From contig CAVWHO010000022.1 of the NCBI GenBank assembly GCA_963754875.1, positions 96,001 through 160,000 of the forward strand: DNA of 64,000 nt. Direction: 5' to 3'. The notes under the pieces were generated by a model. That model ran no database searches. It had not been told where the DNA came from and worked only from the letters and a program-made list of their open reading frames with translations. Below are positions 42,192 through 63,800 of the stretch, one piece after another (position 1 is the first letter of the stretch; each line of letters begins with the position of its first letter). A program made the translations under genes and the position numbers. The stretch is from Nitrospirota bacterium (GTDB lineage: Bacteria > Nitrospirota > UBA9217).

Positions 42192-45100
42192 CTAGAGTAG
42201 TTCCTGCAAGCACTTTTTCACCGCATCTGCAGCAGTTCGGAGCGATTCGTCGGGGAGCGCGATTTGGAGCGTGTATTCCGGTATGAGCTTTATCTTCCCT
42301 TTGCTTTTTTTGATGAGAACCATGACCCGGTCCGCCGATATGTTAGCCTGCTCGGTAAAGGTGATCTTTACCAGGTCCTTGCCTGCGTCGATCCGGGCAA
42401 CACTTGCCTTTTTGGCGATAAGCTTGACGCTCATGATCTCAAATAAATTGGCCACGGGTCCGGGCAATGCCCCGTACCGGTCACGGAGCTCATCGAGGAT
42501 ATCGCGGAGCTGCGCCTCATCGGAAGCGCTCGATATTTCCTTGTATGCAGCGAGCCGCAAGCTTACGTCATGGATGTAATCGTCGGGAATAAACGCCGAA
42601 GCGCGCATCGTGATGATCGTATCGGGCTCGGTCGAAATTTCCTCGCCCCGCAGCTCCGCCATGGCCTCTTCCATCATCTGGGTGTACAAATCGATACCGA
42701 CTGCTGCGATGTGGCCCGATTGCTGCTTGCCCAGGAGATTTCCCGCTCCGCGGGTCTCGAGGTCCTGTGCGGCAATGCGGAATCCGGCTCCCAGTTCGGA
42801 CAATTCCTGGATCGCGCGGAGACGTTTGCGCGCAACGTCTGTAAGCGTTTCGTCTTCGGGAGCGAGCAGATAAGCGTAGGCCTTCTCCCTGCTCCTTCCC
42901 ACGCGCCCTTTTATTTGGTACAGATCGGCGAGGCCGAAGCGGTCTGCCCTGTTGATGATAATGGTATTTGCCGTAGGGATGTCGATACCGGACTCGATGA
43001 TCGTCGTGGTCACGAGCACATTCAGCGTTCCCGCGAGAAACTTCGTCATCACGTCCTCGATCTCATCCTCCTTGAGCTGACCGTGCGCGATGCCGACCTT
43101 TGCCTCGGGTACGAGGTTGTGGATGAACTCGGCCATACGCTCGATGCCTTGGACCCGATTGTGAACAAAGAACACCTGGCCGTCCCGTCCTATCTCATGC
43201 AGGATCGCCTCACGGATTACCCGTTTGCCGAAGCGCGCGAGCACGACTTGAATGGCCTGGCGGTCCATGGGCGGGGTCTGAATGATCGATAGATCGCGGA
43301 TGCCGGCGAGCGACATGTGGAGCGTGCGCGGAATCGGCGTGGCCGTGAGCGTAAGCACGTCTACAAGCTTTTTAAATTCTTTTATCCGCTCCTTGTGCTT
43401 GACGCCGAACTTGTGCTCCTCGTCCACCACAAGCAGGCCGAGGTTCTTGAACGCGATGTCCTTCTGGAGCAGCCGGTGCGTGCCAATCACGATGTCCACG
43501 ACCCCGCTCTTCAGTCCCTTGAGCGTTTCCTGCTGCTCGGCCTTTGTCCTGAAGCGCGAGAGCATGTCAACGCGGATCGAGAACGGCAGGACCCGTTCGG
43601 AAAAGGTACGATAGTGCTGATCGGCGAGGAGCGTCGTCGGCACCAGCACCGCCACCTGCATCCCGTCTTCCACTGCTTTGAACGCAGCCCGGAGCGCAAC
43701 CTCCGTCTTGCCGTATCCCACGTCACCGCACACAACCCGGTCCATGGGTCGCGGCCGTTGCATATCGGCAAGCACATCCTCGATGGCTTTCTCCTGGTCA
43801 ACGGTTTCCTCATAGGGGAAGGCTGCTTCGAACTCGCGGTAGAGGTTGTCGGGCGGCGTGAACGTTGATCGGCTTTGTGCCTCGCGGGCGGCATAAATAG
43901 CAACAAGCTCCCGGGCCATCTCAAGGATGTCCTTCTTAACTTTTTCCTTGGTCCTGGCCCAGGCCGGCGCGCCCAAGCGGTCAAGTTTCGGCGCGATCCC
44001 CTCCGTACCGATATACTTCTGCACCTTGTCGAGGCTATAAAGCGGAACGTACAGTTTTGCGTCGGGCTCGTAGCGGAGGGAAAGAAAGTCCGTTTCAAAG
44101 CCGTCGACATTGATATGCGTCAGACCCTGGTACTCGCCCACGCCGTAGTCCGTGTGGACCACGAAATCGCCGGGCTTCAACTCCTTGAAGGTTGAGAGAA
44201 AGGGTGCTGCTTTTGCTCTCGCTGTTGAAGGACGGTGAACCTTTCTTCCGAAGATCTCTTCCTCGGTAATGAAAATAAGGCCGAGCTCCTGCCAGGCGAA
44301 CCCCTCCGACAGCCTGCCAACGGTCACGACAACGGGCCACGGTGCCGCATCCTGGGTCACGAGGTGGGAGGCCAGCGCCACGCCGAGTCCGTATTCCATA
44401 AACAGCTTCTTAAGTCGTGCTGCTGACTCGTCAGTGCCGCAGACGATCATGACGCTGTTGAATTCCCGTAAGCGCCTGAGCTTCTCGACGAGACCCGCCA
44501 TCGTGCCTTCGATCGGTCGGTGCATTGTGTCCTGATCTTCCCTGTTGATCGGCTTGGTAAGACGAACGCTGAGCCAGGAAGAGGACTTTGTGTCCATGCG
44601 AAAGCCGTCGACTCCTGTTCCGAGGAGACGGCTCGCGACAAGGGGAAAATGCGCCAGTTCCTGGTCAAGCCCGGTTTGATCAAGATAAAGCTCCGATGCT
44701 TCAGGCAATATTCTTCCTTCTTCAACCTCTTCCCGTCTGCCCTCCTCGATTTTAAGGCTCTGGGACTCGGCTTCCCGTTTAACGTCCTCGGGCTCGATGC
44801 AGACGAGGAGACTGTTCTCAGGCAAATATCGGAACAGGCTTTCCATGGTATAGAAAAAAGGCGCGAGGAACTCAGCACCCGGAGGAAGAGTCCCTTCCCT
44901 TATCTGGTCGACCAGGGTCTCATTATCCATTGAGCGGCCGAATTGCTCTATGCCTTTATCGTTTATGATCAGCTCTCGCACCGGCAGCACAACGGCTTCC
45001 CTGATCTCTGTGGTCGAGCGCTGCGTTTCAGGATCGAACGCGCGTAACGATTCCATAGTATCGCCGAAGAATTCAATGCGAATGGGCTGCTCGTGGAGCG

Positions 45101-45668
45101 GCGAGAAGAAATCGACGATCCCTCCCCTTCTGCTGAACTCGCCTACGCGGGTAACAAGGGACGAAGATTCGTAGCCTGTTCCTACGAGGGATGCAACGAG
45201 ATGGTCAGGATCAATTTGCGTCGTCGTGGTAATGGTTTTTACCGAATCCGCAAAGAGTTCCCACGGCGGGAGCTTCTGCATCGTTGACAGGACTGGGACA
45301 ACATAGATGCCGGGATTGCCCGAGATCAGACTGTAGAGAACGCGCATGCGCTCTCCCACGGTGCGGCTGTCAGGCGAGTCCGCCTCAAAGGGAAGCACGC
45401 CCCAGGTGGGTAAGACATGGATTTCGGGCGCCCTGCCGTCTGCCTCGCTGTGGAGCGACTTCTGTTGAAAGAAATTCAGGTCATCGACGAGCGCCTCGGC
45501 AGTATCTTCCGAAGCAGTGATCACAATTACGGGGCGGTCGAGCTCGCGCCTCAGGCCGAATAAAAAAAGGGCCTTGGAGGCCCCCCAGAGTTCGCTCACT
45601 TCGATGTTCTTGCGTCCCGCCTGGATGTCGTCGAGGACAGGCAGGAGGATTTCGTGCAGGTTTTTCAT
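42192..45668 (-). CDS. mfd: Transcription-repair coupling factor
   Basis: GEFSRRGGIVD, CarD-like RID, GDVGYGKTEVA, VDEEH, TATPIPRT, QIKGRVGR, TRCF C-terminus. Confidence 0.98.
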   Translation of the reverse strand: MKNLHEILLPVLDDIQAGRKNIEVSELWGASKALFLFGLRRELDRPVIVITASEDTAEALVDDLNFFQQKSLHSEADGRAPEIHVLPTWGVLPFEADSPDSRTVGERMRVLYSLISGNPGIYVVPVLSTMQKLPPWELFADSVKTITTTTQIDPDHLVASLVGTGYESSSLVTRVGEFSRRGGIVDFFSPLHEQPIRIEFFGDTMESLRAFDPETQRSTTEIREAVVLPVRELIINDKGIEQFGRSMDNETLVDQIREGTLPPGAEFLAPFFYTMESLFRYLPENSLLVCIEPEDVKREAESQSLKIEEGRREEVEEGRILPEASELYLDQTGLDQELAHFPLVASRLLGTGVDGFRMDTKSSSWLSVRLTKPINREDQDTMHRPIEGTMAGLVEKLRRLREFNSVMIVCGTDESAARLKKLFMEYGLGVALASHLVTQDAAPWPVVVTVGRLSEGFAWQELGLIFITEEEIFGRKVHRPSTARAKAAPFLSTFKELKPGDFVVHTDYGVGEYQGLTHINVDGFETDFLSLRYEPDAKLYVPLYSLDKVQKYIGTEGIAPKLDRLGAPAWARTKEKVKKDILEMARELVAIYAAREAQSRSTFTPPDNLYREFEAAFPYEETVDQEKAIEDVLADMQRPRPMDRVVCGDVGYGKTEVALRAAFKAVEDGMQVAVLVPTTLLADQHYRTFSERVLPFSIRVDMLSRFRTKAEQQETLKGLKSGVVDIVIGTHRLLQKDIAFKNLGLLVVDEEHKFGVKHKERIKEFKKLVDVLTLTATPIPRTLHMSLAGIRDLSIIQTPPMDRQAIQVVLARFGKRVIREAILHEIGRDGQVFFVHNRVQGIERMAEFIHNLVPEAKVGIAHGQLKEDEIEDVMTKFLAGTLNVLVTTTIIESGIDIPTANTIIINRADRFGLADLYQIKGRVGRSREKAYAYLLAPEDETLTDVARKRLRAIQELSELGAGFRIAAQDLETRGAGNLLGKQQSGHIAAVGIDLYTQMMEEAMAELRGEEISTEPDTIITMRASAFIPDDYIHDVSLRLAAYKEISSASDEAQLRDILDELRDRYGALPGPVANLFEIMSVKLIAKKASVARIDAGKDLVKITFTEQANISADRVMVLIKKSKGKIKLIPEYTLQIALPDESLRTAADAVKKCLQELL

Positions 45669-46038
45669 AACGAAATATTACTATAACACAGCAACACGAC
45701 TAATTCAATATTGACCGGTATTCGATATTATATCGCGCTGTGCGGATCTTAGACACGAAAAAGCATCTTCGGACACGGATAAAGGCGGATTTCGTCATGA
45801 AAGAGCGTGATTATGTTATTGATTTATCCGCTTTGATCAGGGCCTTTATCGGATTTCATCCGCTTGCGCCCAGCGCTTACGACTGAATGTGCGTAGCCTG
45901 CTTCTGCGAAACCGCCGCCAGAAACGAGTGCAGGGGGTGTCAAAGGTTTGTCCTTTGGTTGCGGCAGCAGACCGCACTATGATATAGTGGTTAGGTTCCT
46001 GTTGTTATGGATGTCAGAAGAAGAATGGGGAGAGCGCA

Positions 46039-46821
46039 GTGCGTGAATGGGACCCTCAACAGTACCTGCGGTTCGAACATGAAAGAACACAACCTTCCAT
46101 CGACCTCGTAGCACGAATTCCCTTGGAAGATCCCAAGACCATTATCGATATAGGTTGCGGCCCGGGAAACAGCACTCAAATTTTACGTAAGAGATGGCCC
46201 CATGCCGATATTATCGGCCTCGATAAATCCGAGAAGATGATAGAACGAGCCCGCGCGGATCATCCGGATCAAACATGGATGATCGGAGACGCCTCAACTC
46301 TGGCGGCTGATCGGCAGTATGATATCGTGTTTTCCAATGCGGCGATACATTGGATCCCGGACCATCAGAGGCTAATCCCGCGATTGTTCCAACTTGTAAA
46401 GAAAGACGGAATATTAGCGATCCAGGTTCCTGCTAATTATGAGTCGCCTTTGTACAAAATCATATTGAACGTTGCACGGAGTAGGAAGTGGAGCGCATTC
46501 ACGTCAGGGTGTGACGAGCTGATAACGTATCATAAGGCCGAATATTATTATAAGCAGCTCGCTTCCTTAACGCAGGACATCGCCCTGTGGGAAACGACCT
46601 ACTATCATATTTTGAAATCCCACCAGGACCTTGTGGCGTGGTATAAGAGTACTGCGATGAAACCGATTCTCGAGAGATTGCCGACTGATGATAATAGAGA
46701 GGAATTCGAACAGGCAGTATTAACTGAATGTAAAGAGCACTATCCTCCTCAAAGCGATGGGCGAATTCTCTATCCTTTCAAGAGGCTCTTTTTTACAGGA
46801 CGCAAAACGGTACGAGGGTAG
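46039..46821 (+). CDS. Trans-aconitate 2-methyltransferase-like SAM methyltransferase
   Basis: WDPQQYLRF..ER..P..DL, DIGCGPGNST, FSNAAIHW, YPFKRLF. Confidence 0.85.
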   Translation: MREWDPQQYLRFEHERTQPSIDLVARIPLEDPKTIIDIGCGPGNSTQILRKRWPHADIIGLDKSEKMIERARADHPDQTWMIGDASTLAADRQYDIVFSNAAIHWIPDHQRLIPRLFQLVKKDGILAIQVPANYESPLYKIILNVARSRKWSAFTSGCDELITYHKAEYYYKQLASLTQDIALWETTYYHILKSHQDLVAWYKSTAMKPILERLPTDDNREEFEQAVLTECKEHYPPQSDGRILYPFKRLFFTGRKTVRG

Positions 46822-47121
46822 TTTTTTGAAGAGGAAAAAAGTGCTTACTGAACTCTGCACACGGCGCAGTTGCTCCAAGAGTGTAACTTTTATTCTGTAA
46901 TCGTTCTTCTCTTCAACTCACTTTTATACCGCAAACCGACATATCCTCCCGAATTTTCTTTTAACCACTCCCACTGCCTCAAATATGACCCCGTGATATA
47001 CCCTAAAAATACCCCTATCGGGGTATGGCGTTATCCTTCGGTTGGTGATACATAGTATGAAATTTTCGAGGCCTTATCTTCTACACCATGAATGTCTTGA
47101 CCGCAAAAAAGCGAGGACCCA

Positions 47122-47481
47122 ATGCAAGTACAGAAATCAGTTCTTATCGTAGATGATGATGAATTACTTACCGGGGCCATTCAAGAGCTGCTTGAAGAAG
47201 ATGGTTATACGGTATTTTGCTGTTACAACGGTGCTGATGCCATCGAACTTTCAAAAAAACAAAATTTTGATGTGATTCTTACGGATTATCATATGCCGGG
47301 TATGAAGGGCGACGTGGTTTGTAGATTACTGCGCCATCACCACCCTGACGTTTTTATCATTGGCTGCAGTACAGATCATCAAGACAAAACTTTTTTAAGT
47401 GCAGGTGCGGATATTTTTATTCAAAAAAACCAGTTAGTTAAAAATCTTGCTCTTTTAATGAAGAGTAAGACCACGCACTGA
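47122..47481 (+). CDS. Single-domain response regulator
   Basis: VLIVDDD, LTDYHMPGMKG, GAD.FI.K. Confidence 0.85.
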   Translation: MQVQKSVLIVDDDELLTGAIQELLEEDGYTVFCCYNGADAIELSKKQNFDVILTDYHMPGMKGDVVCRLLRHHHPDVFIIGCSTDHQDKTFLSAGADIFIQKNQLVKNLALLMKSKTTH

Positions 47482-47666
47482 ATAGAGGGGGCCATCTAAG
47501 CTGGTCACAATCCGTCTCTGAGGCACACTTAGCTAACAAACTCCAGAAGTCAGAAATCTCAAATTCAGGTCGCAAACCACATTATCTCACGAAATTGCGA
47601 GATAAAATCGCATATACGAGATTTGCCGGTCATACTTGACAGCCACCTTGTAAAAAGTACTTATCG

Positions 47667-47704
47667 GGTAGTGGGTCAGTTTGAATCCAAACTGACCCAC
47701 TACC
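47667..47704. mobile_element. 38-bp micro-element: perfect 17-bp inverted repeats with an apparent 8-bp target duplication
   Basis: GGTAGTGGGTCAGTTTG-AATC-CAAACTGACCCACTACC flanked by ACTTATCG / ACTTGTCG. Confidence 0.7.
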
Positions 47705-48014
47705 ACTTGTCGCTGTTCCTTTTTGAAATTGTCATTTTATGATATAATTGCTAATGTCAACTGCTTATATCAGTTACGAATAAAGAACCAAGGATACCGC
47801 ATGCATGAGCGCTACTAACCCGATTGATGAATTTATAAAAAAGTCCTTGACTGAAAAATACTCTCTGAGGTAACTTATGATGAAGAAATTCTTCTGAAAT
47901 CCGCAGCAGCTGTATGTATCTGAAATTACGGCCGACCCGCAGAAATATTCGGCCCAAGGCGACACTATCCGATGATATCGGTGGAGATTATTTTAATGTC
48001 GAATGAGGAGGCTC

Positions 48015-48350
48015 ATGAGTTCATACGGAAACGATAAAAGAATCAGACGAAGAATGAAACAGGAGTTCGTGGTGGGAGTCAGGACCAAGCAAGGATTGAA
48101 TGTGGCCTACACAATTGACGTATCCCGTGGCGGTGTAAAGGTTGGAAGCCCACTGCTTCTGCTTCCCCTTGGAGGACATGTGGAACTCGTGATTGATAAG
48201 CGGGGAGAAAAACACCCGTTCTTAGGCCGAGTAGAAAGAGAGGACGGGAATTATTACATCGACCGCATAAGCCGCAGTGTAAACACATTTTTTATCAGGG
48301 TTGACGACCTGCGGTTTTCAACATTTGTGGTCGACAATTATTTTGTATAA
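48015..48350 (+). CDS. PilZ domain protein
   Basis: GAGGAGG RBS; RIRRR (RxxxR) and DVSRGG (DxSxxG). Confidence 0.8.
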   Translation: MSSYGNDKRIRRRMKQEFVVGVRTKQGLNVAYTIDVSRGGVKVGSPLLLLPLGGHVELVIDKRGEKHPFLGRVEREDGNYYIDRISRSVNTFFIRVDDLRFSTFVVDNYFV

Positions 48351-52449: not shown

Positions 52450-52524
52450 TGTTTGTGTACCTCTAAGATAGGGATAGGAACGAATGACCGAATAGGATGA
52501 ATCAATTCCGTCCACAGGATTTAC

Positions 52525-52653
52525 CTGCGGCTGCTGAAAAAGTCATGCAATGGTTCAACGGGCGTCACGGGTGGATTAAAGCAACAGTTTGGGAAAAATT
52601 CGCCCTTTCGGCCTGGCTGGTCGAGAGTGGCCGGAGCTTTTTCCGCCGCGCAG
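52525..52653. mobile_element. Possible degenerate MITE
   Basis: Imperfect terminal inverted repeats CTGCGGCTGCTGAAAAAG ... CTTTTTCCGCCGCGCAG around about 95 non-coding bases. Confidence 0.4.
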
Positions 52654-52659
52654 CCGACA

Positions 52660-52905
52660 TCATTCTTCTTTTCCGTACACTGCCCGTATCCTTTTCCCGA
52701 GCTCCCGAAGGGCCTCGGAAAATGTCTTTCCCTGGTCCATGAGCTCACGAACGACCTCTGCCTTGCTTAAGGACGCGATCACCTCATCATTCTCGTCCAC
52801 GATCTCGCAGGCGTTTTCACCCTTTTCGAGCTGCTCGCGGATGCAGGTCTCGAGCTGTTCAGGAGAATACTTGTCTACAATTTTTTTTAAATCCTGGGTT
52901 TTCAT
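52660..52905 (-). CDS. Hypothetical helical protein (81 aa)
   Basis: Coding-like ORF MKTQDLKK...SKAEVVRELMDQG..FSEALRELGKRIR; no function recognised. Confidence 0.7.
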   Translation of the reverse strand: MKTQDLKKIVDKYSPEQLETCIREQLEKGENACEIVDENDEVIASLSKAEVVRELMDQGKTFSEALRELGKRIRAVYGKEE

Positions 52906-53057
52906 TGTGGGGACCGAAAACAATAAAAACATTTTATCATAAAATCCTCTTGATATGAACGCTATTTTTTCACTTTTATTCTTCTGTCCGCGATGACGCG
53001 TTCGCTTTTGAGAAAAAGGTGTTTTTTACTCAGGCTGCTTTATGGTAATATACGCTC

Positions 53058-54428
53058 ATGTATGAGCAGGACACTATATGCGCAGTATCTACGCCCCTGG
53101 GTGAGGGTGGGATCGGGCTCATCCGTGTGAGCGGTACGGACGCGATCACCATGGTAACGAATGTTTTCAGGCCGCACAAAAAGAATCTATTCCGATCCGC
53201 TGCCACGCATACTCTGCATTACGGCCACATCATTGATCCGGCGACCGGGCAAATCATTGACGAGACGCTTGTGACGATAATGCGCGCACCTGCAACATAT
53301 ACCCGTGAGGACATCGTGGAGATAAACTGCCACGGCGGCATGATGCCTCTCGCTCGGACCATGTCACTCCTTATCGCAGCCGGCGCGAGACAGGCGGAAC
53401 CGGGCGAGTTCACGAAACGGGCCTTTCTGAACGGCAGGTTAGACCTGGCCCAGGCAGAAGCCGTGATGGACATTATCAGCTCCAAGACCGATGTCGCACA
53501 CCGCGCCGCCAATGAGCAGCTCCTTGGCGGTCTTTCAAAGGAAATTGCGGAACTACGCGACAGGCTCGTATCGCTGCTCGCATCGATCGAAGCGGGCATC
53601 GACTTTCCAGAAGAAGACATCGAAACCGAGACCGGCCAATCACTTCAGAGTGAAGTTAGGCAAGTGCGGGCACAGGTGGACGATCTCCTGTCGAGCTACA
53701 CTTATGGAAAGATTCTTCGTGAAGGGTTTGCCACAGCAATCGTAGGCAGGCCCAATGTCGGCAAGTCTTCGTTGTTAAACGCATTCCTTAAGCAAGACCG
53801 GGCGATCGTTACCGAAGTACCGGGTACAACGCGGGACGTGCTCGAAGAATACGTAAATGTCATGGGTATTCCGCTCAGGATCCTTGACACTGCCGGCATC
53901 AGGCATTCACATGACGTGGTGGAACAGGAAGGAGTGCGTAGAAGCCTTAAAGCCATCGAATCCGCTGATTTGATACTTCTCGTTCTTGACGGATCGCAGT
54001 CGCTCACGCCCGAAGATGATCGGGTGATCGAGGAAATACGCGGAAAGAACGCTATCGCAGTCATCAACAAATCTGATTTACCGAGACAGCTCGGCGCAAC
54101 AGATTGGCCAAAAGTACACATAAACGTATCCTGCCGGACGAGGGATGGCTTCGAGGATCTCAGACGAGCGATAGCTGACATGGTCCGAAGCGGGGCGGTC
54201 GCACCAAAGGAGCATGCCTGGGCAGTAAACCAGCGGCACAAGACCGCGCTGGAACAGACTAAGACAAGCTTGGAAAAGACCCTGATATCGATCGAGGAAG
54301 ACCTTTCACTGGAGTTCATCGCCCTGGATCTGCGCGATGCCCTGGACAGCCTGGGGATAATTATCGGCGCGACGTACACGGACGACATTCTCGAACGGAT
54401 CTTCAGCGAATTCTGTATCGGAAAATAG
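53058..54428 (+). CDS. mnmE: tRNA modification GTPase MnmE
   Basis: DTICAVSTP.G.GG, HGG, GRPNVGKSS, GTTRD, DTAG, NKSD, FCIGK. Confidence 0.98.
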   Translation: MYEQDTICAVSTPLGEGGIGLIRVSGTDAITMVTNVFRPHKKNLFRSAATHTLHYGHIIDPATGQIIDETLVTIMRAPATYTREDIVEINCHGGMMPLARTMSLLIAAGARQAEPGEFTKRAFLNGRLDLAQAEAVMDIISSKTDVAHRAANEQLLGGLSKEIAELRDRLVSLLASIEAGIDFPEEDIETETGQSLQSEVRQVRAQVDDLLSSYTYGKILREGFATAIVGRPNVGKSSLLNAFLKQDRAIVTEVPGTTRDVLEEYVNVMGIPLRILDTAGIRHSHDVVEQEGVRRSLKAIESADLILLVLDGSQSLTPEDDRVIEEIRGKNAIAVINKSDLPRQLGATDWPKVHINVSCRTRDGFEDLRRAIADMVRSGAVAPKEHAWAVNQRHKTALEQTKTSLEKTLISIEEDLSLEFIALDLRDALDSLGIIIGATYTDDILERIFSEFCIGK

Positions 54429-54584
54429 TATAACAATACGAATATTTGAAGTTTGCCACAGTCATGGCGGCCGAGAAGAGAAAATTCAAATGAGGATGAT
54501 GCCGGAAAATGAATTCCTGTTGCCTTTTCTTGAACTTCTTTCCGTGCCCCCGTGTCTCTATGGCAATGCTTCTGGAGTTGCCTG

Positions 54585-56462
54585 ATGTCTTTGGATAAAA
54601 AATACGACGTCATCGTCATCGGCGCAGGACACGCAGGTTGTGAAGCTGCGCTTGCTTCCGCGCGTATGGGCTGCGACACGCTCATGCTCACCATGAACCT
54701 GGACAGCATTGCTCTCATGTCCTGCAATCCCGCCATCGGCGGCCTTGCTAAAGGTCATCTGGTAAAGGAGATCGACGCACTTGGCGGCGAGATGGCGAAG
54801 ATCATCGACCGCACCGGCATCCAGTTCCGGATCTTGAACAGGAGCAAAGGGCCGGCAGTACACGGTACGAGAGCCCAGGCAGACAAGCAGCGGTACCGGC
54901 TCGCGATGAAAGAATCGGTAGAAAAACAACTGCGTCTTGATGTGAAGCAGGGGCTCGTTGAAAAGATTCTCGTGGAAGACAACACGATTACGGGAGTGGA
55001 AACGAACATCGGCGTTCTCTATCGTTCTTCAGCGGTGATCGTCACGACCGGAACGTTCCTGAAAGGGCTCATCCACATCGGGCTCGTTCATTATCCGTCA
55101 GGCAGGGCAGGGGAGTTTCCATCAAACGGACTTTCGGACAACCTCAGGGAGCTTGGATTCGAGCTCGGCAGGCTCAAGACCGGAACGCCTGCACGGTTAA
55201 ATGGAAGAACTATTGATTTTAAGAAAATGAAGATACAGCCTGGTGATGATCCGGCACCGTTTTTCTCTTTTTCTGAAAAAGAGCACGCACTCCCACAAGT
55301 ACCCTGTTATCTCTCTTATACGAATGGAGACACTCATAATATTATTCGCAATAATCTCAATCGCTCCCCACTTTATGCCGGAGTGATAAAAGGTGTTGGT
55401 CCGCGGTATTGTCCGTCGATTGAAGATAAGGTGATGCGTTTTTCTGATCGGGAGCGGCACCAAGTGTTTCTTGAGCCGGAGGGGCTTGACACCGAAGAGT
55501 ACTATGCAAATGGCCTGTCCACGAGCTTGCCTTACGATGTCCAGACAGAGATATACCGCTCGATCCCGGGACTCGAAGATGTCGAGATCATGCGTCCTGC
55601 TTATGCTATTGAGTATGACTTCGCGCCGCCTACGCAGATCCGGCACGCGCTCGAAACAAAAAAAATCTCCGGCCTCTACTTCGCAGGGCAGATCAACGGG
55701 ACCTCGGGGTATGAGGAAGCAGCAGCACAGGGCCTCATGGCCGGGATCAATGCTGCGCTGAAAATTCAGAAGCGGGAACCGCTCATTCTCTCGCGCTCCG
55801 AGGCATATATTGGAGTGCTGATCGATGACCTGGTAACACGAGGAACGAGCGAGCCCTATCGCATGTTCACGTCACGGGCAGAGTACCGGCTCATCCTGCG
55901 CGAGGACAATGCGGACATCCGACTCCGACAGAAGGGACGGGGCATCGGACTCGTATCAGAGGACGCCTATCGGCAATTTCTCGAAAAGAGAGAGAGCATT
56001 GCTGGCGAGGTCCATCGGCTCAAGAAAGTCTGGATCAAGCAAACGCCGGAAGTAGATGCGTTGCTCATCGAACGTGGATCGACAACGCTTTCGGGAGAGG
56101 CTTCGCTCGAGCAGCTTTTAAAGCGGCCCGAAATTGAGTATGGTGACATAGTAAAAATCAGCCCTCCCGAGGAACCGCTCAAAAGCGACGCAGCCGAGCA
56201 AGTCGAAATCCAGGTAAAGTACGAAGGCTATATCCAGCGTCAATTGCAGCAAGTTGACCGTTTTGCCGCGCTCGAACACAAAGACCTCCCCACAGACATG
56301 GACTACGATGCTGTCATCGGGCTCGGCAGCGAGGTGAAACAAAAGCTGAAGCAAGTTCGGCCGATCTCCCTCGGCCAGGCATCGCGCATATCCGGTGTGA
56401 CGCCGGCGGCGATCTCTCTCCTCATGGTTGCCCTCGAAAAAAAGAAGCGGGGAAAGGCATAG
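54585..56462 (+). CDS. mnmG: tRNA uridine 5-carboxymethylaminomethyl modification enzyme MnmG (GidA)
   Basis: GAGHAGCEAA, SCNPAIGG, RLKTGTP, GPRYCPSIEDK, GQINGTSGYEEAA. Confidence 0.98.
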   Translation: MSLDKKYDVIVIGAGHAGCEAALASARMGCDTLMLTMNLDSIALMSCNPAIGGLAKGHLVKEIDALGGEMAKIIDRTGIQFRILNRSKGPAVHGTRAQADKQRYRLAMKESVEKQLRLDVKQGLVEKILVEDNTITGVETNIGVLYRSSAVIVTTGTFLKGLIHIGLVHYPSGRAGEFPSNGLSDNLRELGFELGRLKTGTPARLNGRTIDFKKMKIQPGDDPAPFFSFSEKEHALPQVPCYLSYTNGDTHNIIRNNLNRSPLYAGVIKGVGPRYCPSIEDKVMRFSDRERHQVFLEPEGLDTEEYYANGLSTSLPYDVQTEIYRSIPGLEDVEIMRPAYAIEYDFAPPTQIRHALETKKISGLYFAGQINGTSGYEEAAAQGLMAGINAALKIQKREPLILSRSEAYIGVLIDDLVTRGTSEPYRMFTSRAEYRLILREDNADIRLRQKGRGIGLVSEDAYRQFLEKRESIAGEVHRLKKVWIKQTPEVDALLIERGSTTLSGEASLEQLLKRPEIEYGDIVKISPPEEPLKSDAAEQVEIQVKYEGYIQRQLQQVDRFAALEHKDLPTDMDYDAVIGLGSEVKQKLKQVRPISLGQASRISGVTPAAISLLMVALEKKKRGKA

Positions 56463-56528
56463 GAGTGGGGATATCGGATTGCGTATTCGGATTGTGAGAC
56501 TTCTAATCTTCACGAACGAGGAGACGAC

Positions 56529-57176
56529 GTGACTCCGAGAGAACTGCTTACTTCCGGTGCAGCAGAACTTGGCTTCGCTCTTTCAACGGAGCAGGCCAAC
56601 TCGATATTCATTTTTTTGACCGAGCTCAAAAAATGGAACCAAAAGATCAATCTTACCGCCATACGGGATGAACGCGATATCGTGATCAAGCATGTTCTTG
56701 ATTCTCTTTCTTATATAAAAGGCTTTTCGCCTTCGATCGGGCTCAAGCTTCTGGATATGGGGTCAGGCGCCGGCTTTCCCGCAATTCCGATCAAACTCGT
56801 GCGGCCGGAGATCACGGTCACTATGGTGGAATCGGTCAAAAAGAAAGCCTCATTCCTGAGACACATCATAAGAACATTGAAGCTTACTGGAATCGAGGTC
56901 CAGGACAAAAGAACCGATGAGCTCCCCGATTCATTTCATAGTTCGTATGATGCAGTTACTGCCCGGGCCTTTGCCGACATGAACATGGCCATTGCTGCGG
57001 GCCTGCCATTTCTTAAACAGGGGGGCCTCATGGTCCTGAGTCGGGGGCCCGAGGAGAATATCGATAGGCAGCAGCTGGCAAAGTACGGGATCGAACAGGA
57101 GAAAAGGATCGATCTCATGCTCCCGTTTTCGGATTATAAGAGGGCGATCTGGATATTGAAACGTGCAATATTATGA
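56529..57176 (+). CDS. rsmG: 16S rRNA m7G527 methyltransferase RsmG (GidB)
   Basis: WNQKINLTAI, H.LDS, DMGSGAGFP, VTARA. Confidence 0.96.
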   Translation: MTPRELLTSGAAELGFALSTEQANSIFIFLTELKKWNQKINLTAIRDERDIVIKHVLDSLSYIKGFSPSIGLKLLDMGSGAGFPAIPIKLVRPEITVTMVESVKKKASFLRHIIRTLKLTGIEVQDKRTDELPDSFHSSYDAVTARAFADMNMAIAAGLPFLKQGGLMVLSRGPEENIDRQQLAKYGIEQEKRIDLMLPFSDYKRAIWILKRAIL

Positions 57177-57192
57177 TGTTCCACGTGGAACA
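57177..57192. promoter_or_regulatory. parS centromere-like site 1
   Basis: Perfect TGTTCCACGTGGAACA, palindrome extends 57175-57194. Confidence 0.95.
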
Positions 57193-57324
57193 TCGGGTTG
57201 GGGATTTGAAAATATCATATGTCTCCAGGGGGATACTAAGTCACCGAGAAAACCACTGATGCGGTTTTTTTCAGCTGGTTTTGCATCTATTTACACTTTA
57301 AGGTAAGAGAACTAATAATTAATT

Positions 57325-58392
57325 ATGTTAGAACAGGCACTTAAGATACCGATCGAGTGGCGGGAACTGGCGGAAGAGATCTATGACCAGCAGGGACCGG
57401 TTCTCGTGTTGGGAGCTCAGGGATCAGGAAAGACCACGTTCTGTCTCTATTTTACCGGTCTCCTTTGCCGCCGCAACAAGCGGGTCGCATGGATCGACGT
57501 CGATCCTGGCCAGCCATTCATAGGGCCACCAAGTACCATCTCGCTCACGCTATATGCTGAAGCATCCGACCTCCTCAGGCGAAAGAACCCCATGATCATG
57601 AGCTTTATCGGGAATACATCGCCGGTTGGCCGCTTGCTCGAAATGATCTCTGGACTTCAAAAGCTGATAGCTCAGGCACAAGCACAAAAACCCGACCTGA
57701 TCCTTATCAATACCTGCGGTCTTGTGAACGGCGGGGCAGCACGTGAACTTAAGTACCATGAGATCGATATGATCTCGCCCCAGCACGTCATTGCACTGCA
57801 GCAGGGTACCGAGGTCGAACATCTTCTTGCGCCCCATTCCCATCGTGCCGGTTTATTGATCCACCGCATCCCCTTATCTCCCGATGCCCGGGTCTCGACT
57901 GCTGAGGCGAGGCGCTCATTCCGCGAGCAACGGTTCAAGGAGTATTTCCGCGGCGCGGATTTCCAGGAAATCGCTCTCCATGACGTGGGTGTGCACGGAC
58001 CCGGCCTGGGAACCGGAGAACGGCTCGGATTTCGGGATGTTAACAAGCTTTCTAAGATTCTCCAGGCAATAGTGGTCCATGCCGAGCTTTCTGCTGACCG
58101 CATCTTTGTCATCGTAGAAGGAGAGTATGCAGAATCCGAACTCTTTACTGCTAAAGAGCAGTATGGTGTACGCGAAGTCATGGTTCTGAAACGGTCTGAA
58201 CTGGACCACCTGATCGTCGGGCTTAATGACGACCAGAACCTTTGCCTTGGTCTCGGGATCCTCCGCACCATTGACCTTAAGGAACTGACCCTCAGGGTGA
58301 TTACTCCCTTAAAAGATGTTTCGGCTGTCCGTCATTTATCTCTCGGTTCCCTCCGGGTAAGCCCGGCAGGCGGGGAGCTTGGACAAGTTTAG
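57325..58392 (+). CDS. Clp1/Grc3/Nol9-family polynucleotide 5'-hydroxyl kinase
   Basis: Walker A GAQGSGKTT, DVDPGQPFIGPP, F.G..SP, INTCG clasp, RRSFREQRFKEYF lid, C-terminal CLGLGIL...ITP. Confidence 0.85.
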   Translation: MLEQALKIPIEWRELAEEIYDQQGPVLVLGAQGSGKTTFCLYFTGLLCRRNKRVAWIDVDPGQPFIGPPSTISLTLYAEASDLLRRKNPMIMSFIGNTSPVGRLLEMISGLQKLIAQAQAQKPDLILINTCGLVNGGAARELKYHEIDMISPQHVIALQQGTEVEHLLAPHSHRAGLLIHRIPLSPDARVSTAEARRSFREQRFKEYFRGADFQEIALHDVGVHGPGLGTGERLGFRDVNKLSKILQAIVVHAELSADRIFVIVEGEYAESELFTAKEQYGVREVMVLKRSELDHLIVGLNDDQNLCLGLGILRTIDLKELTLRVITPLKDVSAVRHLSLGSLRVSPAGGELGQV

Positions 58393-58396
58393 TTCA

Positions 58397-58412
58397 CGTT
58401 CCACGTGGAACA
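58397..58412. promoter_or_regulatory. parS centromere-like site 2
   Basis: CGTTCCACGTGGAACA (1 mismatch), palindrome extends 58392-58417. Confidence 0.9.
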
Positions 58413-58555
58413 TGAACCTGGGATCGGGATGCCGCATATCGGAGCGGTGACCGAGGTTCCTCGGCCATTAACCATGTTTTCCCTTCCTTTTATTATTACC
58501 TTATGGTAAAGTATTCCGGTTCTCAACCGGCAGCGTCGGAGGGCGGAAAGAAATA

Positions 58556-59332
58556 ATGGGCAGGGTCATTGCAATCGCTAACCAAAAGGGCGGGGTGGGT
58601 AAAACCACGACAACCGTGAACATTGCCGCCTCGCTTGCCGCAGCGGAAAAGAAGGTGCTTCTTATCGACTCCGACCCCCAGGGCAACTCAACCAGCGGCA
58701 TGGGTATTGACCGGAATGATATCAATGGAAGCACCTATGATCTGTTTACCGGGAAGAAATCGCTCAAGGACATAAAAAAATCGACCCATTTCCCCTGGCT
58801 CGATGTGGTTCCGGCAAAAATCGATCTCGTCGGCGTTGAGGTGGAACTCATCCAGATGATCGCCCGCGAGCGCGTATTGAAAAAGGCACTCGTAACGGCA
58901 AAGGACGATTACGATTACATCTTCATTGACTGCCCGCCGTCGCTCGGCCTCCTTACGGTGAATGCGCTCACTGCAGCCGACGGAGTAATCATCCCGGTGC
59001 AATGCGAGTATTACGCGCTCGAAGGTCTCTCGGCGCTCATGAACACAATTAAACTGATCAAGCAGGACCTGAATCCCGAACTTGCCATTGAAGGCGTGCT
59101 CCTCACCATGTACGACAGCAGGAACAACCTGGCCGACCAGGTCGCACGTGAAGTGCGAAAATATTTCGGAAACAAAGTATACACTACCATTATTCACCGG
59201 AACGTTGCCCTCTCCGAAGCGCCGAGCCACGGCAAGCCGGTGCTGCTCTATGACATCCGCTCCCGCGGAGCGCAAAGCTACCTGGAACTTGCGAAGGAGG
59301 TCATCAGTAATGCAAAAACAGGCGCTCGGTAA
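58556..59332 (+). CDS. parA: Chromosome partitioning ATPase ParA/Soj
   Basis: [44 protein letters not shown]. Confidence 0.97.
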
Positions 59333-60156
59333 AGGTCTCGGCGCGCTCATTCCCGATTTGTCCGCACTCGATGACAACGAGAAGAAAGCGCTCGGAATCC
59401 TTGAGCTCGCTCTGGACAAGATCGTCCCGAACGAGTATCAGCCGCGCAAGATCTTCAACGATGATAAGCTGCAGGAGCTTGCCGCTTCGATCAAAGAGCA
59501 GGGTGTGATCCAGCCCATCATCGTGCATCGGGCAGGCAGCGGCTTCCAATTGATTGCCGGAGAACGGCGGTGGCGCGCATCGCGTCTCGCCGGGCTGAAG
59601 ACCATCCCCGCACTTGTAAAAGAAGCGACCAAGCGCGAGCTCCTCGAAATGGCGCTGATAGAAAACATCCAGCGCGAAGACCTGAACCCTCTCGAAGCAG
59701 CCGAGGCGTACAAGCGGTTGCAGGACGAGTTTAAGCTGACCCAGGAAGATCTTGCCAAGCGGGTCGGAAAAGAACGCTCGACCGTCACGAACTTTCTTCG
59801 CCTGCTCGGTCTGCCGAAAGAGGTCAAGCATGATCTCGCGACCGGCACCCTGAGTATGGGCCATGCCAAGGCACTATTGTCCCTCGACCGTGTACGCGAC
59901 CAGCTCCAGGTATCAGCTTTGATCGTGAAAAAGGGTCTCTCGGTGCGAGAGTCCGAAGGTGCTCGCCTCGCGGCTCAAGAACCCGCCGAAAGAGAGGAAA
60001 GCGCGGCAGCACCAGGAGCTGAAAGCGGTGGAAGAAAAACTCAGGAAAGCGCTCGGCACCAAGGTAAGCATCACGTCAAAATCGAAGGGCGGCAGGATCG
60101 TGATTGAGTACTACTCTCCGGAGGAGTTGGACCGGATCCTAGAGAAAATCGGATAA
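59310..60156 (+). CDS. parB: Chromosome partitioning protein ParB/Spo0J (one +1 frameshift near 59958)
   Basis: [35 protein letters not shown]-terminal LRKALGTKV...GRIVIEY in another frame, span is 3n+1. Confidence 0.92.
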
Positions 60157-60287
60157 ACAATCAACTCATTCACAATAAATACACAAAGGAACGATCTCGA
60201 TATAAAGATACAGACTCGATGAGTGCTTTGTATCTTGGTGACGTCGTGGTTAAAGCATTTTGAGTTTTTTTCGAGGAGGATGTACTC

Positions 60288-60683
60288 ATGTTAAAGAAAG
60301 GTTCAGGATCGCCGGAACAGTCTGAGATCACAGCGTTCCTCGGTAAGGGCACAGAGTTCAAGGGTGTGCTCAGTTTCGAAGGCACTATCCGCGTTGACGG
60401 CAAAGTTGAAGGGGAGGTCGTCTCAAAAGACACTTTGATCGTCGGTGACGGCGCGCTACTGCAGGGCGAGATCACCGTCGGAACGCTCATATCGAGCGGC
60501 AAGGTCGTTGGTAATATCAACGCGGCCCAGAAAGTGCATGTCATTGCTCCCGCCAGAATCGAGGGCAACATCAAGACGCCCAAGCTCATCATCGAAGAGG
60601 GTGTGACCTTTAACGGAAAGTGCGAAATGCCGGGTGAGGCGAAGGGCCTTGAACAGAAGGTCGTATCGCTGACGGACCGGTAA
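60288..60683 (+). CDS. Bactofilin (polymer-forming cytoskeletal protein)
   Basis: LGKGTEFKG.LSF.G.IRVDG.VEG...IEEGVTFNGKCEM beta-helix pattern. Confidence 0.93.
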   Translation: MLKKGSGSPEQSEITAFLGKGTEFKGVLSFEGTIRVDGKVEGEVVSKDTLIVGDGALLQGEITVGTLISSGKVVGNINAAQKVHVIAPARIEGNIKTPKLIIEEGVTFNGKCEMPGEAKGLEQKVVSLTDR

Positions 60684-60855
60684 CCCTATCGAATATTCAT
60701 CGAGCTTGAAAAAAACGACACCAGTGTAACGGGAAGGGAAGGGGCAAAAGAAGCACCCGCCCTCTGATTCATTCGCCCTTTCTGCGCCTTCTCATGTTCT
60801 CCCTATCTCCTGTTTTTCGCCGCCGGAATCACAGGAACACACTAACGAGACAACT

Positions 60856-63800
60856 ATGGTCCTCTTTCACCTCTATCGCACGCCGGCGCTCTCGACCTAC
60901 CAGGCCGCCGGCCTGCTCGTGACAGCGCAGCAGAAGGTCTCTCCCGTTGTCAGCGCAATCGAGACCGAATTCTGTTTCAATGTCGCTGCCGACAGCCCCC
61001 TGACAAACGACGAGATGCGCTTGCTGCGCTGGCTTCTCGCCGAGACCTTCGAGCCCGGCAATTTCTCGGACAAGACGTTTCTTAATCCGCAGTCCGCAAT
61101 CTCCGATCCGCAATTGACTCTTGAAGTCGGTCCCCGCATGAACTTCACGACGGCATGGTCCACGAACGCGGTCTCGGTTTGCCATGCCTGCGGGCTGAAG
61201 AAAATTTCGCGGATCGAGCGGTCGCGACGATACCGTCTTTCGCTCGCCGCGAATGCTTCGCTGGCAAAGGACCAGGAGATCGCATTCCTCGCTCTAGTTC
61301 ACGACCGCATGACCGAGTGTCCCTATCCTGAGCCGCTCAGGACCTTCGAAACCGGGATGGCGCCCGAACCGGTGCGTATCGTACCCCTTATGGAGCAGGG
61401 AAGACCTGCGCTTGAAAAAATCAACCGGGAGATGGGCCTTGGACTTGATGACTGGGACCTTGATTATTACACAAACCTCTTCATAAAAGAAATCAAGCGC
61501 AACCCGACGAACGTGGAATGCTTCGACCTTTCGCAGTCGAACAGCGAACACTCCCGCCACTGGTTCTTCCGCGGCAAGCTCATCGTGGACAACAAGGAAG
61601 CCCCCGAGACCTTGATGAAGATCGTCAAGGCGACCTACGAAGCGAACCGGAACAACAGCGTCATCGCCTTCAGCGATAATTCGAGTGCAATAACAGGCTA
61701 CGATATCACGACCATCATTCCCGAGGTCGTCGGCAAACCTTCGGCGTTCCGCGAAACGAAGCGGAAATATCATATCATCCTTACTGCAGAAACGCACAAT
61801 TTCCCCTCAGGCGTTGCACCCTTCCCCGGTGCCGAGACCGGCACCGGCGGCCGCATCCGCGACGTTCAGGCGACCGGCACCGGCGGGCTCGTGGTCGCAG
61901 GCACTGCGGCCTACTGCGTGGGCAACCTCCGCATCCCCGGATACGCACTCCCGTGGGAGGACGCGTCCTATGCATATCCAAATAATCTCGCTTCTCCGCT
62001 CCAGATCGAGGTCGAGGCGAGCAACGGCGCCTCGGACTACGGCAACAAGTTCGGCGAGCCGGTCATTCAAGGCTTCACGCGCTCCTTCGGCCTTCGGCTT
62101 CCTGATAATGAACGGCGGGAGTGGCTCAAACCGATCATGTTCTCCGCCGGCATCGGCCAGATGGATTCGCTCCATACCGCGAAGACCGCAGCCCAAAAAG
62201 GAATGCTCGTGGTCAAGGTCGGCGGCCCGGCCTACCGCATCGGCATGGGCGGCGGCGCTGCTTCTTCCATGATCCAGGGCGAAAACATCGCAGAGCTTGA
62301 CTTTAACGCGGTGCAGCGCGGCGATGCCGAGATGGAGCAGAAGCTGAACCGCGTGATACGCGCCTGCGTCGAGCTCGGGGAGCAAAACCCGATCCAGAGC
62401 ATTCACGACCAGGGTGCGGGCGGAAACTGCAATGTCGTCAAAGAAATCGTACACCCTGCGGGCGCAAAGATCGACATTCGACGGATCCAGGTCGGGGACA
62501 ACACGCTCTCGGCCCTCAAGATCTGGGGCGCCGAGTACCAGGAACAGAACGCCCTCCTCTTAAAACCGGAGCATCAAGGCCTGTTCAGATCGCTGTGCGA
62601 GCGCGAGAAGGTGCCCTTGGCCGTGATCGGCACGGTGACCGGCGAAGGTTACATTGTACTCTACGATGAATTCGACAACTCGACGCCGGAGAACCTGGAA
62701 CTCACCAAAGTTCTCGGCGACATGCCGCAAAAGGTTTTCAAGCTTGACCGGAAGAAGACCTCGCTCAAACCGCTCGAGCTTCCGAAAGACCTCACGGTAC
62801 GGCAGGCTCTAGACCGCGTGTTGCGTCTTGTCTCGGTGGGGTCCAAGCGCTTTCTCACGAACAAGGTCGACCGGTCCGTAACGGGCCTCATCGCCCGCCA
62901 GCAGTGTGCAGGCCCCTTGCAGCTTACTGTGTCCGATGTTGCTGTGATCGCACAGTCCCACTTCGGCTTGACCGGGGCAGCCTGCGCCATCGGCGAACAG
63001 CCCGTCAAAGAACTGATCGACCCTGCTGCCATGGCCAGGATGAGCGTCGGCGAGGCGCTCACGAACATTGTCTGGGCGCAGGTCTCCTCTCTCGGCGACA
63101 TCCGCTGCTCGGCAAACTGGATGTGGGCCCCGAAACTGCCGGGCGAAGGTTCCCGCTTATACGATGCCGCCGTTGCCATGCGCGACGTCATGATCGAGTT
63201 CGGCATGGCAGTTGACGGGGGCAAGGACAGCCTGTCCATGGCCGCCAAAGTTACGAACGCCGACGGAACGAGTGAAACCGTGAAGTCTCCGGGAACGCTT
63301 GTCATCTCCGCCTACGTCACCTGCCCGGACATCACCAAGACGGTGACGCCGGACCTCAAGGCACCGGGCAAGAGCAAGCTTCTCTCCATCGACCTCGGCT
63401 CCGGACAAAATCGGCTCGGCGGCTCGGCGCTCGCACAGGTCTTCGGCCAGGTGGGAGATACATCCCCTGACCTTGATGATCCCCAGCTCCTGACGAGAAC
63501 GTTTACCGCCATGCAGAACCTTGTCGCAGACAGGCTCATTCTTGCCGGCCATGACCGTTCCGATGGGGGCCTCGTAACGACGCTGCTCGAAATGGCCTTC
63601 GCCGGAAACTGCGGCATCGAGATCGACCTCGGAAAACAGAACGACGCTCTGGCCGCGCTCTTCTCCGAGGAGCTCGGGCTTGTGATCGAATATCTCCCGG
63701 CTGAAGAAGCAACGATCTTCTCCGTACTCGATAAAGCCGCGGTCCCGTTCCGGGTGATCGGCAGGACAACGCTTGAGAAGCGAATAGTCTGTTCACTCAA

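Follow-up and report, generated by a model that had tools for sequence, protein, structure and literature searches.

Why should a gene with the hallmarks of an RNA kinase lie between two sites that belong to the chromosome segregation machinery? The question is raised by a stretch of 64,000 nucleotides from a Nitrospirota bacterium (GenBank assembly GCA_963754875.1, contig CAVWHO010000022.1, positions 96,001 to 160,000), referred to as the window in this text. An open reading frame (ORF) in it, here called clp1, is located between the methyltransferase gene rsmG and the partition gene parA, and one parS-like palindrome follows each of rsmG and clp1. We think it probable, although well short of certain, that clp1 is a bacterial gene of the Clp1/Grc3/Nol9 family and predicted to encode a 5'-OH RNA kinase, that it lies inside an ordinary two-site parS centromere, and that the two likely have no functional link. 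The host genome comprises 4.3 Mb in 22 contigs and is estimated to be 90% complete. The features on which the argument turns are the following:

57325-58392, plus strand: clp1, predicted gene of a Clp1-family polynucleotide 5'-OH kinase (355 aa, ATG start, TAG stop, CLP1_P)
Domains of the clp1 protein: residues ~22-210 form the kinase domain, residues ~215-355 a putative Clp1-like C-terminal domain
57177-57192, no strand assigned: parS site 1, TGTTCCACGTGGAACA, a perfect 16-bp palindrome that begins at the first base after the TGA stop of rsmG
58397-58412, no strand assigned: parS site 2, CGTTCCACGTGGAACA, with 1 mismatch to site 1, starting 4 nt after the TAG stop of clp1

The clp1 product and its conservation in the class

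By profile, motifs and fold, the product of clp1 is a P-loop kinase of the Clp1/Grc3/Nol9 family. Pfam CLP1_P (PF16575) matches it over the entire profile (positions 1-188 of 188) with E 5.6e-35 and 121.3 bits (cut-off 26.6), and a profile search of the host genome gave this single match. Other P-loop Pfam families match the protein solely through the Walker A region, and no NCBIfam model reached its cut-off. The original prediction, made from the sequence without any searches, had described a 355-aa ORF between rsmG and parA with four motifs of this family. Both the ORF and the family assignment held up, and the motif residues could be located: Walker A (GAQGSGKTT, of the form GxxxxGK[ST]) at residues 30-38, Walker B (DVDPGQ, of the form DxDxGQ) at 58-63, the clasp (NTCG) at 129-132 and the lid (RRSFR, of the form RxxxR) at 196-200. 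Across 42 homologs with 28-71% identity, residues G30, G35, K36, D60, G62, Q63, G132, R196 and R200 do not vary, and D58 and T130 are at least 90% conserved. A sequence search of the PDB gave clear matches to human and C. elegans Clp1, NOL9 and Grc3 (E 2e-8 to 2e-4); the next matches were RecA and LAO/AO kinase at E ~7e-3.

An AlphaFold2 model built with the 42-sequence homolog alignment reached a pLDDT of 95.1 and a pTM of 0.91 (it replaced a single-sequence model that was unusable, with a pLDDT of 31.7). Ranks 1-22 of the Foldseek list were all Clp1/Grc3/NOL9 entries (E 2.2e-19 to 6.6e-10, 342-418 columns, TMq 0.46-0.63; for example 4oi0_A with E 2.2e-19 and TMq 0.61), and the next fold, that of SRP-type GTPases, appeared from E 5e-5 onwards. 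Since the Foldseek alignments extend over 357-374 columns of Clp1 chains that are 395-399 residues long, the model implies that the C-terminal ~140 residues would correspond to the Clp1 C-terminal domain. The NOL9_C profile remained below its threshold on this protein (22 bits vs a cut-off of 31.6).

The best sequence and fold matches are thus found among eukaryotic Clp1 (C. elegans 4ohv-4oi1, human 8hmy_E) and Grc3/NOL9 (7y17, 7y18, 9dun), which have the same catalytic motifs. However, the clp1 protein shares only 15-18% identity with these enzymes and is devoid of the eukaryotic N-terminal domain. It is comparable to Ts-Clp1 of Thermus scotoductus, likewise a bacterial CLP1_P kinase that stands alone, has a short N-terminus and contains the motifs of Walker A, Walker B and the lid. 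Unlike Ts-Clp1, which has no C-terminal domain according to PMC6777427, it contains a conserved ~140-aa region that, judging by the fold search, would align with the C-terminal part of eukaryotic Clp1. The annotation as a kinase is already in public databases, where near-identical proteins are named 'polynucleotide 5'-kinase involved in rRNA processing' and 'polynucleotide 5'-hydroxyl-kinase GRC3/NOL9' (JGI); the NCBI name of a near-identical protein is 'Clp1/GlmU family protein [Nitrospirota bacterium]'.

The gene is kept throughout the class, which corresponds to one family in our collection. We compared 54 class genomes of at least 85% completeness and found a full-length ortholog in 45 of them (E<1e-119, stop codon only at the end). 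Seven of the nine genomes without a clp1 match have no rsmG match either, and the region is therefore probably unassembled there; in another one, the contig ends 350 nt past rsmG. Only G025 is truly without clp1 and has the order mnmG-rsmG-parS-parA-parB. Because four of the five genomes in its genus carry clp1, the absence looks like a recent loss. The G025 locus (L025, G025:C5:8422-12057) has one parS between rsmG and parA, which is consistent with a deletion between two parS copies; when its flanks were compared with those of the congeners for a deletion junction at parS, they proved too diverged to tell. Identity to the window protein was higher for clp1 than for rsmG in all 19 of the 19 relatives' loci; clp1 evolves more slowly than rsmG, under tighter constraint.

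The parS pair and the gene between its sites

The parS consensus is a 16-bp palindrome of the TGTTNCACGTGNAACA type. When up to 3 mismatches are allowed, the window holds two matches, compared with a mean of 0.26 in shuffled sequences, of which 1 in 100 reached two. At a limit of one mismatch, no further site of the TGTTCCACGTGGAACA form occurs anywhere in the 4.3-Mb assembly. Both lie at most 1.4 kb upstream of parA, and their coordinates bear out what had been noticed at the outset, namely that one parS comes right after the rsmG stop and a second one 4 nt after the clp1 stop. We regard the two palindromes as putative chromosomal parS sites beside parAB that are conserved in relatives. The other classical parS form, TGTTTCACGTGAAACA, occurs twice on a different contig (G000:C16:4826 and 6631), with 1.8 kb between the copies; these could stem from a plasmid, from contaminating DNA or from a second system for partition.

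For the class we annotated 46 loci (the 45 relatives with clp1 and the window), taking as parS-like any site with at most one mismatch to TGTTNCACGTGNAACA. The gene directly upstream of clp1 is rsmG in 44 of these loci, the remaining two being cut by contig ends. A parS-like site is present between rsmG and clp1 in 39/46 loci and after clp1, before the next gene, in 44/46 (one exception is cut by a contig end); clp1 is bracketed by parS in 38/46. Among the loci that span rsmG to parA, 38 of 39 have exactly two parS-like sites and one has three. No class locus has such a site in the mnmG-rsmG gap.

It is not always clp1 that lies between the two sites. A gene for a hybrid-cluster protein (hcp; Prismane, E ~1e-167) lies between clp1 and parA in 16/46 class loci, for example in L134 (G002:C1:745500-749600), L136 (G019:C3:344300-347400) and L135 (G003); the host genome has no hcp at this position. 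Of the 15 assessable hcp loci, 7 have a parS on either side of hcp, and in an eighth, L163, the site is found only after hcp. Seven loci have no parS upstream of clp1, and in six of them the two sites flank hcp instead of clp1. Other Nitrospirota families do not have clp1 at this locus, and there two parS sites surround rsmG, one in the mnmG-rsmG gap and one in the rsmG-parA gap. We found this rsmG-flanking pair in 5 genomes, at 6 of the 18 loci examined (L034, L037, L038, L039, L042 and L047; two of the loci belong to one genome, and one has a third site).

The pair persists while the gene between its sites varies (rsmG, clp1 or hcp), and the conserved feature is therefore the parS pair before parAB. 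The pair is independent of the gene it encloses. The parS bracket is best read as the ordinary centromere of the lineage, into which clp1 happens to be set. The oriC-proximal parS cluster of P. aeruginosa (four sites, PMC7022226) offers a parallel: there as here, 16-bp palindromes with GTTCCAC half-sites occur in multiple copies in intergenic regions beside parAB, and the half-sites GTTCCAC and GTTTCAC are both named in that paper. The present lineage differs from P. aeruginosa in that it holds two sites, as counted above for the complete loci, and in that the gene between them varies.

Two further loci deviate in detail. In G002, an ISL3 transposase is encoded between clp1 and the next parS. 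In L176 (G029:C37:18504-31556), both parS sites are situated between clp1 and parA, 260 bp apart, and none is upstream of clp1; a cargo gene may have been lost here and have left this arrangement behind.

Could ParB nevertheless control clp1? According to the original prediction, an RNA end-healing kinase might have joined the tRNA/rRNA modification cluster under ParB control, linking RNA processing to segregation. ParB loaded at the flanking parS sites would then spread over the gene or act as a roadblock. Several observations fit such a scenario: the frequent bracketing of clp1, including the upstream site in 39 of the 46 loci, the class-wide order mnmE-mnmG-rsmG-clp1, and a parS only ~30 nt ahead of the clp1 start codon in some relatives. 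In addition, an intergenic parS represses the downstream gene in P. aeruginosa, as described in PMC7022226. However, the parS pair exists without clp1 in the other families and surrounds another gene in six class genomes. Outside the class, we inspected 80 distant homolog loci from Bacillota, Armatimonadota, Rokubacteria/Methylomirabilota, Poribacteria, Ignavibacteriales and several archaeal groups. They were found with a six-sequence alignment of distant homologs, and the set is biased toward the relatives of that query. None of the 80 loci has mnmG, rsmG, parA, parB or a parS-like site within ~4 kb, and two homologs of the same phylum (family f2, 37% identity) have no rsmG, parA or parS nearby. 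The order rsmG-clp1-parA is seen in a single class only, and the notion that the kinase joined the modification cluster is not supported by this comparison. The adjacency of mnmG, rsmG and parAB is itself widespread and, to our knowledge, has no known functional reason, which also counts against the scenario. Finally, the loss of Spo0J in B. subtilis left the expression of parS-adjacent genes unchanged (PMC7022226). We therefore consider the coupling of RNA processing to segregation doubtful, and ParB control of clp1 as possible but unsupported.

The second suggestion of the original prediction was that clp1 arrived by recombination or insertion at parS and that this event duplicated the site, the second parS being the scar. 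In favor of this, G025 has a single parS and no clp1, while its four congeners display parS-clp1-parS, and the second cargo gene, hcp, can also have a parS on both sides (see the 7 of 15 loci above). But if each insertion duplicated the site, loci with both cargo genes should have three, and 15 of the 16 loci with clp1 and hcp have two (L148 is cut inside hcp); L161 alone has three. Furthermore, the identity of the two window copies stops at GTTCCACGTGGAACAT, 16 nt, and hence there is no longer duplicated flank. The original prediction took two parS sites in relatives without the gene as evidence against duplication, and in essence this is what the 5 genomes of other families show, with the pair around rsmG; G025 is the one result that points the other way. 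Since G025 is better read as a case of recent loss, and families without clp1 at the locus already have two sites, an origin of the second parS by duplication seems unlikely.

A bolder idea is that the two sites delimit a ParB-bounded slot of ~1-2.5 kb before parAB, which in this phylum always holds exactly one gene (rsmG in some families, clp1 in most of the class, hcp in some of its members) whose expression would be gated by ParB loading. We consider this very unlikely. If it were true, the slot gene would follow the replication/segregation cycle, and in this class a 5'-OH RNA kinase would be coupled to the cell cycle. That the sites number exactly two while the enclosed gene can change is a descriptive but clean observation, which could interest researchers working on ParB loading.

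Predicted activity and possible role of the kinase

Ts-Clp1 prefers single-stranded RNA (ssRNA) and has a Km for ATP of 2.5 uM (Saito et al. 2019, PMC6777427). By analogy, we infer an ATP-dependent 5'-OH kinase activity with a preference for RNA for the clp1 protein. The enzyme would move the gamma-phosphate of ATP onto 5'-hydroxyl RNA ends, such as those left by metal-independent ribonucleases, toxins or ribozymes. The ends would be converted to 5'-monophosphates and would then be open to processing or decay by RNases that are sensitive to the 5'-phosphate (5'-P); RNase J is present in the genome. The model for this role is Grc3, which licenses Rat1 in eukaryotic pre-rRNA processing and follows the same logic: the kinase makes the 5'-P that an exonuclease needs. 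Unlike for eukaryotic Clp1/Grc3, no Las1, TSEN or Pcf11 partner would be expected, and a search of the genome for the Las1 family gave no match (the control genomes gave none either). The cellular role is a weaker inference than the activity, but we favor the conversion of 5'-OH to 5'-P ends for RNases over healing for a ligase, since there seems to be no ligase to serve.

The search for such a ligase went beyond the window, in which the absence of an RNA ligase had been noted correctly, and yielded only a frameshifted rtcB and LigD. The single PF09414 match in the genome is LigD (536 aa, 3'-phosphoesterase and ATP-dependent DNA ligase); a ligase of the Rnl type was not found by PF09414 in this 90%-complete assembly. 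The LigD gene (G000:C8:~44600-48100, L132) adjoins genes for a LigD-type Prim-Pol and a DUF72 protein, which together form a bacterial end-joining set. The rtcB match (G000:C10:90995-92293; L026/L027) is split into four pieces over three reading frames, either because it is a pseudogene or because of assembly indels. RtcB joins 5'-OH ends, and a 5'-phosphate would block it; the kinase would therefore oppose RtcB, not feed it.

These results bear on classical RNA repair, in which the kinase would heal 5'-OH ends so that a ligase acting on 5'-P/3'-OH ends can reseal tRNA or rRNA. Polynucleotide kinases are classically paired with a ligase (T4 Pnkp/Rnl, Trl1), and the genome encodes a 2H phosphoesterase (PF13563, E 2.7e-17) at another position. 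Against it stand the missing Rnl-type ligase and the state of rtcB, the product of which would be blocked by the 5'-phosphate, as well as the lack of a ligase among the 149 immediate neighbors of 78 homologs (2 of the 80 distant loci were without an ORF call). An involvement in RNA repair by ligation thus appears improbable. The least probable of all is a role as a DNA end kinase that phosphorylates 5'-OH DNA ends and, for example, feeds LigD-dependent end joining: the LigD and Prim-Pol genes are present and Ts-Clp1 acts on single-stranded DNA when the enzyme concentration is raised, but the LigD genes lie unlinked on another contig and the assayed prokaryotic enzymes prefer RNA (PMC6777427 for both enzymatic statements).

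Several points weigh against our overall view of clp1 as an RNA kinase gene without a tie to its surroundings. On the side of the enzyme, the residue after TxG is a leucine in the clp1 protein (NTCGL), compared with a tryptophan in eukaryotic Clp1 (clasp TxGW). RNase J can act on 5'-OH RNA as well, so that a kinase would be less needed. There is no nuclease partner linked to clp1, and the licensing of decay has no direct support in this genome; among 15 runs that cover part of the stretch, no RNA run is listed. On the side of the locus, parS begins ~0-5 nt past the clp1 stop in 25/44 loci (approximate distances, taken from tblastn alignment ends). This proximity and the conserved adjacency of rsmG and clp1 could reflect a functional tie. 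In P. aeruginosa, PA0011 and PA0013 are repressed by intergenic parS sites located upstream of them (PMC7022226).

Bacterial Clp1 is rare and patchy, being reported for 14 of 1,543 complete species in PMC6777427; in the supplement of that study, Nitrospirae account for 6 species and 7 proteins. The same source notes for S. cerevisiae Clp1 that family members can lack kinase activity. As for genomic position, its main text contains no occurrence of rsmG, and its four word starts with 'parA' belong to other words (parapertussis, parameters, parasitic). In our literature search, we found no paper that gives bacterial Clp1 a cellular role; activity in vitro has been published. A class that as a whole keeps clp1 intact at one fixed site, more tightly constrained than rsmG, offers a good opportunity to learn what the enzyme does. 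Neither the kinase nor the centromere changes current understanding, and bacterial Clp1 kinases have been published already.

Gene neighborhood and distant relatives

The genes surrounding clp1 and the parS pair in the window are:

53058-54428, plus strand: mnmE, which opens the conserved run and encodes a tRNA modification GTPase (Pfam MnmE_helical E 3.8e-60, TrmE_N E 6.2e-43)
54552-56462, plus strand: mnmG (gidA), an ORF named by homology; tblastn places mnmG upstream of rsmG in relatives
56529-57176, plus strand: rsmG, 16S rRNA m7G methyltransferase (Pfam GidB E 2.5e-40)
58556-59332, plus strand: parA (Pfam AAA_31 E 2.8e-70, CbiA E 7e-30)
59322-60107, plus strand: parB (Pfam ParB_N E 1e-34, HTH_ParB E 9.2e-36); the start at ~59322 is taken from homology, and the longest ORF begins at 59082
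60288-60683, plus strand: bactofilin gene (Pfam Bactofilin E 6.4e-28), which follows parB in class loci too

The spacer between rsmG and clp1 varies from ~41 to 437 nt within the class. A short spacer leaves little room for a promoter of its own, and clp1 is therefore likely to be co-transcribed with rsmG in those members. A scan for promoters and terminators gave counts no higher than in shuffled sequences. We did not rely on one promoter-like site before clp1 (57290-57319), which ends 5 nt before the ATG. Rfam, searched at permissive thresholds over positions 52500-61000, returned 0 matches.

In a HMMER search of 1.84 billion representatives, E<=1e-3 was reached by 2,465 relatives and E<=1e-30 by 431; the majority are ~350 aa long and match end-to-end. 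In a quick, unrooted tree, in which several long branches stem from crude ORF calls, the class forms one clade (support 100) with a protein of another Nitrospirota metagenome-assembled genome (MAG) as sister (98). The next neighbors include the family-f2 homologs from the same phylum, and the archaeal sequences cluster apart. A recent transfer from archaea was considered and rejected, as the nearest sequences in this quick unrooted tree are from Nitrospirota and other bacteria, with the archaeal ones apart. We read clp1 as what appears to be an old bacterial lineage of the family.

The 149 immediate neighbors of the distant homologs contain no universal family. The most frequent arrangement, seen in 17 loci, has a His_Phos_1 gene immediately downstream in the same orientation (12 of these loci are titled Armatimonadota and 5 have no phylum in the title; they include L057, L064, L067, L068, L071, L073, L078, L084, L097, L102, L104, L110, L111 and L121). 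A pair of kinase and His_Phos_1 phosphatase would recall end-healing enzymes. Other neighbors are NTP_transf_5 in 5 loci, SIR2 in 4, NFACT in 2 and a YhaM-like protein with OB and HD domains in 2; in these last two, both from Bacillota (L048 and L080), the YhaM-like gene lies upstream of the kinase gene.

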